Origin: a virus
Lineage: Duplodnaviria; Heunggongvirae; Uroviricota; Caudoviricetes
Direction: 5' to 3' (one strand)
Length of the DNA stretch: 31,930 nucleotides
Virus record (IMG/VR): IMGVR_UViG_2565956721_000004
Coordinates: 1-31,930 of that record
Shown: piece after piece, positions 2,650 to 11,383 of the stretch
How the letters are laid out: each line of letters begins with the position of its first letter
Position numbering within the stretch: the stretch's first letter is position 1
The notes under the pieces: generated by a model
The model's input: the letters and a program-made list of their open reading frames with translations, nothing else
Database searches by the model: none
Told to the model about the DNA's origin: nothing
Translations under genes and position numbers: made by a program

Positions 2650-3720
2650 ATGGCTAACGCCTGGCTCAGATTATGGCATGACATGCCAAATGACCCTAAG
2701 TGGCGAACAATTGCCAGGGTGTCAGGGCAGCCAATTGCAACAGTGATGGCAGTGTATATCCACCTCCTGGTGAGCGCGTCACGAAATGTCACGCGAGGTC
2801 ACATTGATGTCACGACAGAAGATTTGGCAAGTGCGCTCGACGTGACAGAAGAGGTAATTGATTCAATTTTGCAGACGATGCAGGGGCGGGTACTTGATGG
2901 TGATTTAATCACTGGATGGGAAAAACGCCAGGTGCTGAAAGAGGACAACGGCAATATTTCGCAAACCGCAAAATCTCCTGCAGAGCGCAAGAGGGCGCAG
3001 CGAGAGAGGGAAAAAATGCGGGAACAAAATGGCGATTGTCACGGCGCGTCACGAAATGTCACGCACATGTCACGACAAGTCACGACAGATAAAGATACAG
3101 ATAGAGATACAGATAAAGAAGATCAAAACACTATGGTCCATGGCGTAAAAAACGCCACGAACCATGTAGGGGATGTTCAGACCGTCACTCCTGGCCAGCC
3201 CGCAGGCACGACACCGGAAGCCGATTCAGCGTATGCGCTGAAAGCCGATTCGGGCGCTGTGCAGCAGGCGATGACCGCAGGGCCGGAGCAATCACACCAA
3301 CTGCAGCAGCCTGAAGCCGATTCCGCCATTCAGCGGGAAGCCGATCGGGTAGTCCCGGAAAACACCGGGCAGCCTGTGGGACGAGTGGATTATCCGGATG
3401 TGTTCGAACAGGTCTGGCGGGAATACCCGTTACGAGCCGGGGCAAACCCGAAGAAATCCGCTTTCAGTGCCTGGAAGGCCAGATTACGCGAGGGGGTGCC
3501 ACCAGAGGCCATGCTGGATGGTGTGAGGCGTTACACAAGATACCTAGCTGCTACCGGGAAAACGGGAACGGAATTTGTTCAGCGAGCGACGACGTTTTTT
3601 GGACCGGACCGGAATTTTGAAAACCCCTGGTTGCTCCCGGTAAGCGGCACGAACAACCAGCGTTGTGTTAATCATATTTCTGAACCGGACACCGAAATTC
3701 CGCCGGGATTCAGAGGGTAA
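2650..3720 (+). CDS. Phage replication initiator / replisome organizer (YdaU/DUF1376-like N-terminus) carrying internal origin iterons
   Basis: ATG at 2650 with AGAAGAGG RBS (track starts at GTG 2644). N-terminus AWLRLWHDMPNDPKWRTIA resembles replisome-organizer N-domains. Position after cro/ydaT is typical. Contains the iteron clusters listed below. Confidence 0.6.
   Translation: MANAWLRLWHDMPNDPKWRTIARVSGQPIATVMAVYIHLLVSASRNVTRGHIDVTTEDLASALDVTEEVIDSILQTMQGRVLDGDLITGWEKRQVLKEDNGNISQTAKSPAERKRAQREREKMREQNGDCHGASRNVTHMSRQVTTDKDTDRDTDKEDQNTMVHGVKNATNHVGDVQTVTPGQPAGTTPEADSAYALKADSGAVQQAMTAGPEQSHQLQQPEADSAIQREADRVVPENTGQPVGRVDYPDVFEQVWREYPLRAGANPKKSAFSAWKARLREGVPPEAMLDGVRRYTRYLAATGKTGTEFVQRATTFFGPDRNFENPWLLPVSGTNNQRCVNHISEPDTEIPPGFRG
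2774..2816. repeat. Iteron cluster 1: four GTCAC(G/A) repeats phased ~10-11 bp (2778, 2788, 2798, 2809)
   Basis: Read directly. The 21-mer GCGCGTCACGAAATGTCACGC (2774-2794) recurs identically at 3044-3064. Confidence 0.6.
3038..3125. repeat. Iteron cluster 2: five GTCACG repeats phased 10-11 bp (3038, 3048, 3058, 3069, 3079) followed by GATA-rich A/T stretch (3088-3125); candidate phage origin of replication
   Basis: Read directly. The architecture (helically phased iterons plus adjacent A/T-rich DNA inside the initiator gene) mirrors lambda ori inside gene O. Confidence 0.6.
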
Positions 3721-4408: not shown

Positions 4409-7207
4409 ATGTGGGGAAGTGAAAACAAACAAAATCTGGACGTACTGGATCCTGTGCAGTTGGTGCGTATCGAAGCGGTACACCGGGGGTTCCTTTACCA
4501 GCATCTTTACGCTGTAGGCTGCTTACTTTTGGCGCAGAGGGCTGCTATGGACTCAGTAACTGTCGAGCTTGATGAGGATATTGAGCTGAAATCCAAACAG
4601 GAACGTCTCTACATTCAGGTTAAAACCCGTTCAAAACCTATTATGCCCAACGATGTGTCGGGGGCTCTGGAGCGATTTGTAAAGCTCAGAAATGAGCATA
4701 CTTCGGCAAACCGCGAAGGGGTGGCTTCTTTTGTGATTATTGTAAACCAGGCGCCTGGACCGCTGCTTCAGAAGATGATTGACGATAAAAAGCTTCCTTC
4801 TGATGTTCTTATTGTCTGGCCCCAGTCGATAGCTGGACGTCACCCGGCACTTCCGCCCGCATGGAGTACTCTGGCTGATGCGGCCACATGGTGTATCGCA
4901 GAAGCAGAAAAGCTGAAATTTTCACTATTGTCCCCAGAATCCTTGATTTGGAAGTTAGCAGGATTGGTTCAGCTTGCCGCCACCGGAGGCGATACCAATG
5001 GACAACATACGTTTTTCACGGAAGAACTTACTGAACTATTTGAACAGTTGATCGTTCAGCTACAGGACTTTCCTGCACCACCAGCACTGTACCGCCCACA
5101 AAACGAAGAACCTTCTCTCACATCTGGTGAGCGGATCCGTATCCTTTGTGGACTCTCAGGTGCAGGCAAGACAGCTTGGGCCGCACAGGCCGCATTACAC
5201 TCCACTGCACTTTGTGCTTATTACGACACCGGTGATCTTCCCGGTCCAGCTCTGGCCAGTACGCTGGTGCGCGAGATGGCTGCTAGATTTACAGCCCGTG
5301 ACCAAGACGGTTTGCGCAGGATTTTGCTCCCCGGTGCCAGTGGTTTTGAGGCTCTTAGGAGTTTTGATACCTACCTGAAAGAGCAGGGTACCACCTTGGT
5401 GCTGGTTCTGGATAACGCCCATCGTGTACCTGCGGAAAATCTACGGGATGTTCTGAATGCAACTACACATATTCGTTTTGTGCTGTTGTGCCAGCCTCAC
5501 GAAAACGTTCGCGAACTGGAGGTCATGACGGGGCTACAGCGCGAGGGCCTGCAGGGATGGAATCTCGATACGGTAGCTGTCGTTGTAAACGATATCGGAG
5601 GATTTGCCACCGCTATGGGATACGAGCAGCTACGGGCTTACACTGGTGGTCTTCCCCTGTATGTAGAGAGCGCCGCAAAAATCGCCGTTTCTGATTATGA
5701 GCGTAATGTCGATGCTCTGTGTGCTGAACTCCAGCAACAAACCCATACTGCGGAAACCGCCCAAGAAATTATTCTGTCACGTGTATTTCAGGGATTTGAA
5801 TCACTACTTCAGAGCGCGCTGGCATTGTTCAGTCTCTCTGACGTAGGGCTGAGTCGCGAAGAGATTTCTACGCTCCTAATCAATTCGCTGAACATTTCAC
5901 CAAGCAGTGCGGCTTCTTTAATTAGGAAAATGCGCGCTACTGGCACTATTGAAATTTATGGAAACCAGACCCTGAAGGTACATGATGCTGTCAGGGGGCT
6001 AGGACTGCAACATCTGGAACTGATGGATCAGGGTATATCGAACAAAGCGCTACTAGCGCTGAAAGACCTTTTAGTTGAAAGTCTTCATAATACCCGCAAT
6101 ACAAAACGGTTATCGTTGTTGACTCAACTTTATATTAAGCTCAATGATGTCACGACGTTGATCGAACTCTCAGGCCAAGAAATGTTTTATGAGATGGGCG
6201 TGACGGTCGACATTCTTGCAAGCTTGGAGCGTGCTGCAACATCGGACTTATTGGGACCTGTTCATAAATTCTGGGCATTGGATGGCCTTGTTTTCGTTGA
6301 GCTTAAAGACGGAATATCCGACCACATTGCTCAGAGGTTAAACATCATGGGAGCTTTACTTGCGGAGCACAAGTTCGGCTATCAAGAAGAGATGGCCTAT
6401 GCAATGAAACGAATGTTATTTTCGGCAGAAAGCAATGATGCACGAGAAGTTCAAAAGCTGGCACAGGAAGTCCGCCCCCAACTCCCAGATGAAGAACATA
6501 AACGCATCTTTGACTACAACCATGCCATTGCACTCTGGAGATTAAAAAAACTCAAGGATGCTGAAACATTAAGCTGTAATGTTATACAAGGGTACTATTC
6601 TTTATTTGGTATCACACCTGCTGATGTCATAGGAAAAAACGCCGACGCATTATGGAAAACTATTAATCATTCCGAAAATATGCAGGAACACTTTAAACAT
6701 ATGGCTGATGCTCTGGAGTTGCTGGCCAGAATTCGTGATGCGCAGGGAAAACTGTCACCATTACTGCGTATTCATTCGATGAAGTTCTACAATCTGGCCA
6801 TGGCCCCGGAATCCATGGTCAGGGTGGGCCAAGATCTGGCGGATGAGTTTGTTGCCATAAAGGATTACGACGGTGCCAAGGAAGTCATGGAGCAACATGT
6901 CCTGCCGGTTGTCAATGAGGCAGGTCTAGTACATCGACTGATTCAGGTTCGAAGCCAATACGCAGTCATATTGGCACTATCGGGTCAGCATAAAGCAGCT
7001 GATGTCGAAATGCAGCGCCTTGCTCCCTATATCGAAGGCCTCACAGGTGTACAGCGTCAAGAAATCCAAAATCAATCAAATTACATCGTACAGCTTGCCC
7101 ATAAAGCAGCAAAGACTAAATTAACTGAAGTTTTTGGTGCGGTCGGCCGGAATGAACAATGCCCCTGTGGCTCGGGAATAAAGTACAAAAAATGTCACGG
7201 TGCCTGA
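4409..7207 (+). CDS. STAND-type P-loop NTPase with N-terminal Mrr-like nuclease-type domain, TPR-like helical C-terminal region and terminal SEC-C zinc motif (candidate antiphage sensor)
   Basis: 932-aa ORF with AAGGA RBS. Motifs read from the translation: D55...Q70-V-K72 (hhhQxK, Mrr/PD-(D/E)xK-like); Walker A G248-LSGAGKT255 (nt 5150-5173); Walker B L330-VLVLDN336; GLPL motif 414-417 (NB-ARC/STAND hallmark); long helical repeat region; C918-P-C920-GSGIKYKK-C929-H930 (SEC-C type). Fold and function are inferred. Confidence 0.85.
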   Translation: MWGSENKQNLDVLDPVQLVRIEAVHRGFLYQHLYAVGCLLLAQRAAMDSVTVELDEDIELKSKQERLYIQVKTRSKPIMPNDVSGALERFVKLRNEHTSANREGVASFVIIVNQAPGPLLQKMIDDKKLPSDVLIVWPQSIAGRHPALPPAWSTLADAATWCIAEAEKLKFSLLSPESLIWKLAGLVQLAATGGDTNGQHTFFTEELTELFEQLIVQLQDFPAPPALYRPQNEEPSLTSGERIRILCGLSGAGKTAWAAQAALHSTALCAYYDTGDLPGPALASTLVREMAARFTARDQDGLRRILLPGASGFEALRSFDTYLKEQGTTLVLVLDNAHRVPAENLRDVLNATTHIRFVLLCQPHENVRELEVMTGLQREGLQGWNLDTVAVVVNDIGGFATAMGYEQLRAYTGGLPLYVESAAKIAVSDYERNVDALCAELQQQTHTAETAQEIILSRVFQGFESLLQSALALFSLSDVGLSREEISTLLINSLNISPSSAASLIRKMRATGTIEIYGNQTLKVHDAVRGLGLQHLELMDQGISNKALLALKDLLVESLHNTRNTKRLSLLTQLYIKLNDVTTLIELSGQEMFYEMGVTVDILASLERAATSDLLGPVHKFWALDGLVFVELKDGISDHIAQRLNIMGALLAEHKFGYQEEMAYAMKRMLFSAESNDAREVQKLAQEVRPQLPDEEHKRIFDYNHAIALWRLKKLKDAETLSCNVIQGYYSLFGITPADVIGKNADALWKTINHSENMQEHFKHMADALELLARIRDAQGKLSPLLRIHSMKFYNLAMAPESMVRVGQDLADEFVAIKDYDGAKEVMEQHVLPVVNEAGLVHRLIQVRSQYAVILALSGQHKAADVEMQRLAPYIEGLTGVQRQEIQNQSNYIVQLAHKAAKTKLTEVFGAVGRNEQCPCGSGIKYKKCHGA

Positions 7208-7484
7208 GTCTTTGTACGACCATGCGGGCCTTATTGTCTTGCTATTGCTCTTATGGTTCGCCTTTCTGATTGATTTCATATTGGCGAGGTGACGGGAGTT
7301 AAGTAGAATGGCTGCGGGTGCTTGAGGCTATCTGTCTCAGGCATGAACACCAAAGGCAGATAGAGAAAAGCCCCAGTTAACATTACGCGTCCTGCAAGAC
7401 GCTTAACATTAATCTGAGGCTCAATCTATGAACGGCAAATCTAGGTTAGCCTCTTACGTGCCGAAAGGCAAGGAGAAGCAGGCT

Positions 7485-7640
7485 ATGAAGCAGCAAAAGG
7501 CGATGTTAATCGCCCTGATCGTCATCTGTTTAACCGTCATTGTGACGGCACTGGTAACGAGGAAAGACCTCTGCGAGGTACGAATCCGAACCGGCCAGAC
7601 GGAGGTCGCTGTCTTCACAGCTTACGAACCTGAGGAGTAA
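7485..7640 (+). CDS. hokD: Hok/Gef-family type I toxin (HokD/RelF-like), with overlapping upstream mok-like frame starting 7428
   Basis: 51 aa MKQQKAMLIALIVICLTVIVTALVTRKDLCEVRIRTGQTEVAVFTAYEPEE: single transmembrane helix plus conserved Hok C-terminal motif; matches HokD as I recall it. Confidence 0.8.
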   Translation: MKQQKAMLIALIVICLTVIVTALVTRKDLCEVRIRTGQTEVAVFTAYEPEE

Positions 7641-11073: not shown

Positions 11074-11149
11074 GGCCCTTTAGCTCAGTGGTGAGAGCGA
11101 GCGACTCATAATCGCCAGGTCGCTGGTTCAAATCCAGCAAGGGCCACCA
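11074..11149 (+). tRNA. tRNA-Ile2 (anticodon CAU, ileX-like; formally could decode Met)
   Basis: Cloverleaf folded by hand: acceptor GGCCCTT/AAGGGCC, anticodon loop CTCATAA, T-loop TTCAAAT, 3' CCA; close to E. coli ileX as recalled. Confidence 0.8.
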
Positions 11150-11150
11150 A

Positions 11151-11227
11151 CCGCCACTAGCTCATCAGGAAAGAGCGTCAACCCTTTAAGTTGAGTGTGC
11201 GAGGTTCGAGTCCCCGGTGGCGGTCCA
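11151..11227 (+). tRNA. Atypical tRNA-like gene, anticodon UUU (Lys) with C at position 33 and 5'-CC start
   Basis: Hand fold: acceptor CCGCCAC/GTGGCGG, U8, D-loop with GG, anticodon stem TCAAC/GTTGA with loop CCTTTAA, T-loop TTCGAGT (one A-C mismatch in T-stem), CCA end. It is only 1-2 nt from its neighbours. Confidence 0.5.
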
Positions 11228-11229
11228 GT

Positions 11230-11305
<76 letters not shown>

Positions 11306-11308
11306 TAT

Positions 11309-11383
<75 letters not shown>

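Follow-up and report, generated by a model that had tools for sequence, protein, structure and literature searches.

A probable replication origin with two conserved iteron arrays inside the initiator gene of a lambdoid Escherichia coli prophage

The DNA analyzed here, referred to as the window, is the 31,930-nucleotide virus record IMGVR_UViG_2565956721_000004, which by gene content is an intact-looking lambdoid prophage of E. coli and is identical to part of E. coli AR_0089. In the place of the lambda O gene, after a cro-like and a cII-like gene, it encodes a 356-amino-acid replication initiator whose reading frame contains two arrays of the hexamer GTCACG, here called block 1 and block 2. 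It is probable that the region from 2774 to 3165 is the prophage origin, written in the initiator gene itself, and that block 1 cooperates with block 2. The earlier proposal that an origin lies within the initiator frame, as lambda ori lies within O, gained support from the comparative evidence, namely the gene family, the O-like position of the gene, the location of block 2 at a domain junction, and constraint at the DNA level. The evidence supports a lambda-like intragenic origin with a conserved auxiliary array of predicted binding sites. Block 2, the A-rich stretch and the hairpin that follow it are taken as the core origin. The features of the region are as follows.

2650-3720, + strand: initiator gene, 356 amino acids (RefSeq start ATG at 2650; alternative start GTG at 2644)
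2778-2814, + strand: iteron block 1, with GTCACG at 2778, 2788 and 2809 and the variant GTCACA at 2798 (spacing 10/10/11)
2841-2846, - strand: inverted iteron copy, reading CGTGAC on the + strand, which with the copy at 2809 forms TGTCACG-N25-CGTGACA
2977-3030, + strand: coding region of a basic helix (amino acids 110-127, AERKRAQREREKMREQ; AlphaFold helix), between the blocks
3038-3084, + strand: iteron block 2, with GTCACG at 3038, 3048, 3058, 3069 and 3079 (spacing 10/10/11/10)
3085-3135, + strand: A-rich, AT-rich stretch of GAT-NNN repeats at a 6-nucleotide period, candidate DNA-unwinding element
3133-3165, no strand assigned: imperfect palindrome ATGGTCCATGGCG-TAAAAAA-CGCCACGAACCAT, directly 3' of the A-rich stretch
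3379-3717, + strand: coding region of the DnaT-like C-terminal domain, from a PDB profile match

The motif positions agreed with the initial annotation, which had reported two GTCACG clusters at 10-11 bp spacing. All five copies it assigned to block 2 were found, while only three of the four it assigned to block 1 are exact, the copy at 2798 being a variant. Its description of the arrays was correct overall but missed the inverted copy at 2841-2846. The identical 21-mer that it placed in both clusters about 270 bp apart, GCGCGTCACGAAATGTCACGC, is present in exactly two copies (2774 and 3044), which are 270 bp apart, share one reading frame and each encode ASRNVT. Block 1 encodes amino acids 43-55, where the model shows a helix ending in a low-confidence loop of the predicted DNA-binding domain, just before the putative helix-turn-helix, and block 2 encodes amino acids 130-145, at the junction of the N-terminal domain and the linker. 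On both strands of the window GTCACG was observed 27 times, compared with 14.2 +/- 3.4 times in shuffled sequences, and none of 100 shuffles reached 27. Eight + strand copies fall within 307 bp, where 0.18 would be expected (Poisson P = 2.6e-11). Chance is therefore excluded as the origin of the clusters. No GTCACG cluster was present in the operator region or elsewhere in the window.

Homologous loci were taken from genome and viral collections. Phages and prophages of other genera have both blocks at the same offsets within the gene, block 1 at about +128 to +159 and block 2 at about +386 to +430; these genera include Pseudomonas, Bordetella, Acidovorax, Aquitalea, Serratia, Rahnella, Gilvimarinus and others. 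Among 50 diverse loci, all 50 kept both blocks, with the tandem sites followed by an AT-rich stretch in the same order; the number of copies in block 1 ranged from 2 to 7. An inverted copy was present at the same offset (+191) in most GTCACG-type homologs, and the Val codon GTG within it had the same third base in 17 of 17. In the GTCAC class, block 2 contained direct copies only, while loci of the GTAAC class had inverted copies in both blocks, and several homologs had a perfect GTCACGTGAC palindrome in block 1. The conserved part consists of the asymmetric 6-bp core and the 10/11-bp spacing only, the flanks remaining below 0.9 bit per position. The exact identity of the 21-mer is a local feature of the E. 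coli lineage.

The hexamers of the window begin at codon phases 2, 0, 1 and 0 in block 1 and 1, 2, 0, 2 and 0 in block 2. Because all three codon phases are used, the 10-11 bp period does not derive from a repeated peptide. Synonymous constraint was evaluated at the third positions of conserved degenerate codons in 19 homologs with 63-78% amino acid identity and no insertions or deletions in the first 112 codons. Entropy at these positions was 0.17 bit inside the block-1 hexamers (n = 10) and 1.38 bit elsewhere in the N-terminal domain (n = 54; Mann-Whitney p = 7e-7), and for 4-fold degenerate codons the values were 0.11 and 1.67 bit (p = 6.5e-6). Codon repetition of a protein motif without conservation of the DNA, a possibility raised in the initial annotation, fails to account for arrays that use all codon phases and whose synonymous sites are frozen, and a peptide-repeat origin was rejected. 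This comparison indicates that the repeats are a DNA signal rather than a peptide repeat, and that block 1 is a second array of predicted cognate sites under direct selection on the DNA. A separate perfect palindrome, TGGCATGACATGCCA, at 2674-2688 encodes an invariant WHDMP; its DNA is almost invariant as well, which low codon degeneracy may explain.

The two blocks also change sequence together. A set of 150 non-redundant loci was anchored on the invariant WxDMPxDPKW motif. The block-2 core predicted the content of block 1 in 142 of the 150, these being the loci that had a periodic block-2 motif and hence could be classed. Copies of each core in block 1 were as follows.

GTCAC class, n = 114: own core 4.6 copies; other two cores 0.01 and 0.04
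GAACG class, n = 19: own core 2.95 copies; other two cores 0.11 and 0.37
GTAAC class, n = 9: own core 3.67 copies; other two cores 0.33 and 0.33

The classes cut across the relatedness of the N-terminal domains, which suggests that iteron classes switched several times independently, each time in both blocks. Outside the loop, the protein of the window (GTCACG) was 76% identical to that of locus L110 (CGAACG) and 72% identical to that of L001 (GTCACG), and GTAACG occurred in at least 3 protein subgroups. L107 (GTCACG) was nearest to L104 and L108 (GTAACG), with L104 mixed in both blocks. This subgroup uses GTCAC, GTAAC or a mixture in both blocks, and at offsets of about 140-230 and 410-455 it contains overlapping cores spaced 5 bp apart, GTCACGTCACGTCAC, and palindromes, GTAACGTTAC. 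It looks like a recent specificity switch caught in progress.

The most class-specific segment of the protein was the loop encoded by block 1 (SRNVTRGH.. vs SNATERGRTQ.. vs ..GNAGVTQ..). It is conceivable, though quite improbable, that this loop (amino acids 43-56) itself reads the iterons, in which case the site and its reading head would occupy the same nucleotides and would switch specificity together. It is more economical to place specificity elsewhere, for example in the basic helix of amino acids 110-127, with the loop merely tolerating the sequence that the DNA dictates. In a class-sorted alignment the residues of this helix differed between iteron classes, making it a candidate specificity element. 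A simple amino acid code for iteron class in the helix was sought and rejected, as no consistent rule emerged and L107 breaks it.

The initiator matched PHROG family phrog_3729, 'replication initiation protein' (E = 7.5e-251), and more distantly the 'DnaD-like helicase loader' and 'replisome organizer' families, and RefSeq names the coding sequence 'phage replisome organizer' or 'hypothetical protein'. No Pfam family, including Phage_rep_O, matched the 356-amino-acid protein at E ≤ 0.01. Its predicted architecture is as follows.

Amino acids 1 to about 127: N-terminal DNA-binding domain
Amino acids 128-243: disordered linker
Amino acids about 244-356: DnaT-like C-terminal domain

In the AlphaFold model the N-terminal domain has helices at 4-11, 16-25, 29-45/49, 56-63 and 67-79, a poorly defined segment at 80-107, and the basic helix at 110-126/127; amino acids 128-243 are disordered, and the C-terminal domain is helical and confident over 244-332 (predicted local distance difference test score about 90). 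Foldseek returned no significant match with the full-length model, and the N-terminal domain was re-modeled alone because the low-confidence linker spoils that model. No family in Pfam or NCBIfam matched the N-terminal domain, for which the models point weakly to a DnaD-like winged-helix/helix-turn-helix fold; the PDB entry 8ojj is described as a tetramer of the DnaD N-terminal domain. For the C-terminal domain, a profile search of the PDB found 6aep (E = 1.2e-8), 2ru8 (2.2e-6) and 9zbt (8.6e-6) over profile positions 217-315, and the NCBIfam match to DnaT was weak.

The two halves of the initiator are shuffled independently. In Pseudomonas phage phi1 a segment 69% identical to amino acids 1-138 is joined to a different C-terminus, and in O157-type prophages the same N-terminal domain is joined to another DnaT-like domain (PF17948). 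Shigella phage 75/02 Stx and certain E. coli proteins combine counterparts of amino acids 159-356 with unrelated N-terminal domains, and the C-terminal part of this module is also found in SfV and ST64B. By tblastn and alignment, the junction of the shuffled halves coincides with amino acids 130-160, which are encoded by block 2 and the A-rich stretch. In the loop encoded by block 1, which varies in length, insertions in homologs are extra repeat units.

As the initial annotation had noted, a GATA-rich A/T stretch follows immediately after the second cluster. This stretch (3085-3135) is 71% A+T, with 55% A on the top strand, whereas the gene as a whole is 46% A+T. Three 12-bp units, ACAGATAAAGAT, lie within the stretch, which encodes TTDKDTDRDTDKEDQ, including the acidic linker TDKDTDRDTDKEDQ. 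No secondary structure was predicted for it as single-stranded DNA. The motif AGAT[AT]A was found after the last block-2 iteron in 41 of 50 diverse loci, opening a purine-rich, AT-rich stretch. Because it is read in different frames across loci (all three are used, giving for example TDKD or QIRED), it appears to be a DNA element. The hairpin at 3133-3165 has a predicted dG of -9.5 kcal/mol (z = -3.35) and is common at the DNA level to the C-terminal modules of two other N-domain families, where protein constraint is not separable from DNA constraint.

Two further observations concern this part of the gene. A GATC (Dam) site lies at 3121-3124 in the A-rich stretch, and many homologs have GATC or AGATCT there. 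Further downstream, AAGCCGAT occurs four times, at 3218, 3242, 3314 and 3338 (spacing 24/72/24), and these are its sole copies in the 31.9-kb window. All four are in one frame and encode (E/K)ADS in the disordered linker, and the sequence is also repeated in locus L283; it may represent a DNA site or a repeated short motif of the protein.

Two further N-domain families that show no evident resemblance to that of the window are fused to the same C-terminal module and contain their own repeats in two blocks, 256 and 264 bp apart (loci L282:1501-2610, L002:1994-3082 and L283:1001-2131). One block lies in the part encoding the N-terminal domain and the other just before a purine-rich linker. The second family, which includes phage 75/02 Stx and the E. 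coli 'DNA-binding protein' P0033, has AAGGGGCTT at offsets 184 and 195 and three more copies at 440-462; the exact DNA pattern was present in 13 of 23 non-redundant loci, and an EGASKGL-type peptide motif at both positions in all 23. The second block of phage 75/02 Stx is inverted, and this tolerated inversion fits sites in double-stranded DNA and argues against an RNA motif. The third family (P0116) has GAAGCCTT at 186 and 198, and its CAGGAA-repeat linker is preceded by four alternating copies at 450-486. The presence of two separated blocks, which the initial annotation had called unusual, is so beside the single block of lambda but is the norm for this initiator family and for the two others that share its C-terminal module.

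Binding, unwinding and helicase recruitment by the initiator are here deduced from sequence. The putatively DnaD-like N-terminal domain would recognize the GTCACG hexamers, whose one-turn spacing would line up the bound subunits on one face of the DNA. An initiator oligomer on the five sites of block 2 would then open the duplex at the purine-rich, AT-rich stretch and palindrome, and the DnaT-like domain would contact the single strand thus exposed and recruit the DnaB helicase of the host. Delivery of the helicase would probably proceed through host DnaC, since no helicase or helicase-loader gene was found among the genes of the window and the C-terminal domain is DnaT-like. Block 1, located 260 bp upstream in a permissive, loop-coding segment, would most likely cooperate with block 2, the two forming a single larger initiator-DNA complex in which the approximately 230 bp between them are looped or bridged, and it may also dampen transcription of the initiator gene. 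Cooperation is favored because the separation of about 260 bp recurs in three families, the same motif is used in both blocks, and the N-terminal domain, if DnaD-like, is of a kind known to oligomerize. The initial annotation had offered duplication or a bipartite origin as explanations for the two blocks. Both blocks are old, being shared by phages of Gamma- and Betaproteobacteria, and change sequence together, and thus the bipartite origin is favored and duplication less so.

Several observations weigh against this interpretation. The distance from the first site of one block to the first site of the other ranged from 168 to 350 bp (median 258) and was neither fixed nor in helical phase, so a rigid looped structure is not favored. 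Among 38 near-identical E. coli copies, single-nucleotide polymorphisms were not significantly depleted in the hexamers (4/60 vs 58/500, p = 0.18). Three loci (L109, L115 and L148, two of them from metagenome-assembled genomes of Ventosimonas) showed no clear repeats at either block position; they keep the N-terminal domain and a long (GATAAA)n linker, and both blocks are missing together. The best-hairpin score 3' of block 2 across homologs was 6.41, compared with 5.47 for shuffled sequences and 5.52 and 6.72 for controls. In the literature searched, coverage of which was incomplete, no binding, footprint, replication or marker-frequency data were found for this initiator family. Block 1 might in principle owe part of its maintenance to frequent gene conversion from block 2. 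In two other loci, from a Serratia metagenome-assembled genome (L117) and a Pantoea genome (L119), a GIY-YIG-like segment (YVYYV...GISRNPWAR) follows the N-terminal domain and replaces the basic helix and linker (about 1501-2700); GTCACG-type blocks are absent from both, and ACTACG repeats are present after the N-terminal domain.

Block 1 may act in looping, as an enhancer or in autoregulation. It is possible, if rather doubtful, that block 1 is an autoregulatory operator or roadblock, at which accumulated initiator would bind codons 43-66 and limit transcription, and is not part of the origin proper. This explanation is modeled on the Rep proteins of iteron plasmids, which act at inverted repeats near promoters; it overlaps with cooperation between the blocks, as both need cognate binding, and the two are not mutually exclusive. 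It would account for the inverted copy in block 1 and the perfect palindromes of several homologs, which stand against the purely direct block 2 of the GTCAC class. It would also suit the position of block 1 inside a transcribed gene, with no AT-rich stretch adjoining it: 59% A+T was measured in the window, and homologs from GC-rich hosts are not AT-rich there. However, block 1 lies 130 bp inside the gene rather than at a promoter, and a promoter and terminator scan of the region found nothing above chance, the sole - strand promoter-like match (3062-3035) being made of iterons. In addition, GTAAC-class loci have inverted copies in both blocks, and the recurrence of the two-block geometry at about 260 bp in three N-domain families suggests a structural role.

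It is improbable that block 1 is a functionless passenger, kept like block 2 by recurrent gene conversion within a protein loop that tolerates its sequence. The exact 21-mer shared by the blocks of the window does resemble the tract of a recent conversion, the length of the loop and the copy number of block 1 both vary, and the loop is modeled with low confidence. In most lineages, however, the spacers differ between the blocks while the hexamers are intact, which points to selection on the hexamers and not to copying of tracts. Block 1 was kept in every one of the 50 diverse loci, and no lineage with block 2 has lost it; no sequence in block 2 of the GTCAC class could have templated the conserved inverted copy at +191, and two other N-domain families have the same layout. 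That the repeats serve a host protein, the repressor or an RNA-level signal instead of the initiator, or that they are only a repeated peptide motif, SRNVT, is very improbable indeed. The 21-mer does encode ASRNVT in both blocks, but a period of 10-11 bp is no multiple of 3, and codon phase and synonymous sites behave as described above. Close relatives within the same host groups differ in their motif, which a fixed host factor would not readily explain, and the confinement of the clusters to the initiator gene leaves the operator region without any. No Rfam family matched the origin region, and the inversion in phage 75/02 Stx is unlike an RNA motif. Cooperation of the two blocks in a single origin remains the preferred interpretation.

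The proposed arrangement was compared with known systems. The lambda ori is flanked by a palindrome. In lambdoid and Stx phages, ori lies in the middle of gene O and consists of 4-6 iterons and an AT-rich region (PMC7466680). In the direct comparison with lambda ori that the initial annotation had proposed, block 2 and the AT-rich stretch occupy the equivalent place, and block 1 has no counterpart: the only iterons of lambda O are the four annotated ones, which form a single block, and the part encoding its N-terminus has none. The lambda origin and the proposed one both lie inside the initiator gene at the junction of a DNA-binding N-terminal domain and a recruiting C-terminal domain, tandem initiator sites are followed by an AT-rich stretch and then a palindrome, and the encoded peptide is a tolerant linker; both genes follow cro and cII or their like and have a Ren-like gene downstream. 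In contrast, the lambda iterons are symmetric 18-bp sequences about 20-24 bp apart, while those of the window are 6-bp cores at a 10-11 bp period without an internal dyad. The initiator of the window is not a homolog of O, given the missing Phage_rep_O match; its C-terminal domain is DnaT-like and it is not followed by a P-type loader gene. Lambda lacks a second array, whereas block 1 is conserved and co-varies with block 2.

A precedent for a two-part phage origin with separated clusters of the same short repeat is satellite phage P4, whose ori and crr are two repeat clusters that the alpha protein binds and that are both required in cis. In P4 about 4.5 kb separate the clusters and the initiator is a primase-helicase, whereas the clusters of the window are about 260 bp apart, both inside the initiator frame, and its initiator has no enzymatic domain. 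In iteron plasmids (P1 incC/incA and F incB/incC), origin and control arrays flank rep, and Rep binds inverted repeats for autoregulation. Here too there are two arrays of one iteron near rep, one adjoining the AT-rich opening site and the other auxiliary or regulatory through pairing or looping, and the inverted copies that serve the plasmids as operators are paralleled by the inverted copy in block 1. The plasmid iterons are about 19-22 bp long, lie outside coding sequence and serve copy-number control of a stably kept replicon, a control that an induced prophage need not have.

Replisome organizers of phages of Gram-positive bacteria, and bacterial DnaD, likewise have an N-terminal DnaD-like winged-helix domain that binds origin repeats, as is predicted for the window. 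The oriL repeats of phage SPP1 lie within the gene of their own initiator, G38P. G38P is reported to form complexes with two discrete DNA regions (PMC5615212, and the title of Missich et al. 1997 as cited there). The two SPP1 regions are far apart in the genome and G38P uses a phage-encoded loader and helicase, unlike the initiator of the window with its DnaT-like C-terminal domain. The C-terminal ~100 residues of that initiator match the three-helix, single-stranded DNA-binding C-terminal domain of E. coli DnaT, or primosomal protein I (PDB 6aep, 2ru8, 4ou6/4ou7 and 9zbt; the E value is that given above for 6aep). DnaT itself lacks a domain for sequence-specific DNA binding and works together with PriA and PriB at stalled forks, whereas the domain in the window is tethered to a putative origin-binding domain.

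Of 5426 complete E. coli genomes, 2977 contain DNA related to the initiator gene, in 1647 cases at near full length, and relatives are also present in phages of many Gamma- and Betaproteobacteria. Initiators 96-97% identical to that of the window occur in two records deposited as Escherichia phages, Evi and vB_EcoM-606R7. In Evi, the one of the two whose neighborhood was read, no loader gene follows the initiator; in some relatives with the same C-terminal module a DnaC-like gene adjoins it. Other prophage genes in the window include dicB, ydfA-D and DicF RNA. The initiator open reading frame is followed by a DUF977/Ren-like gene and then by a large SEC-C/AAA gene, hokD/sok, RusA, Q and four tRNAs, and the window also contains lysis genes, HK97-type head genes and lambda-like tail genes. 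The control genes upstream of the origin (1368-2578) would drive transcription into it. Features outside the initiator gene, the three protein-coding ones from the open reading frame list and annotation, are as follows.

175-226, - strand: DicF antisense RNA
1368-1829, - strand: repressor
1888-2169, + strand: Cro/YdaS-like gene
2153-2578, + strand: cII/YdaT-like gene
7316-7490, + strand: sok antitoxin RNA, beside hokD
11074-11380, + strand: four tRNA genes 3' of Q (RefSeq: Ile, Lys, Thr, Gly)

The large gene between the replication module and hokD (4409-7207, + strand; 932 amino acids) encodes an N-terminal Cap4-nuclease-like segment with a weak match to LmuA, an AAA ATPase domain and a C-terminal SEC-C motif, and looks like a prophage-borne defense or accessory gene.

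The initiator family is widespread and uncharacterized, and its origin appears to be undescribed in the literature searched. Searches on GTCACG iterons, replisome organizers, the phage D3 origin, DnaT-like prophage replication and P4 crr returned no description of it, although older subscription papers could describe the repeats, and the Eru paper on Stx-phage replication regions contains no iteron analysis. What is new relative to lambda is the use of short sites spaced one turn apart, the DnaT-like recruiting domain, and the conserved, co-evolving second array in the sequence that encodes the DNA-binding domain. The analysis defines predicted cognate sites in three specificity classes, a candidate unwinding element and a second intragenic array. 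Few cases show a DNA function overriding codon choice as clearly as the synonymous-site conservation of block 1, and because its hexamers can be removed by synonymous changes without altering the protein, the role of block 1 is cleanly testable. The natural switches among L104, L107 and L108 offer a ready system for studying how a winged-helix initiator changes its target. With a DnaT-like domain fused to a predicted origin-binding domain and no phage gene for a loader, these prophages may enter the restart-primosome route of the host to load DnaB. The iteron classes also predict which co-resident prophages, including relatives of Stx phages, would show replication incompatibility or cross-activation.

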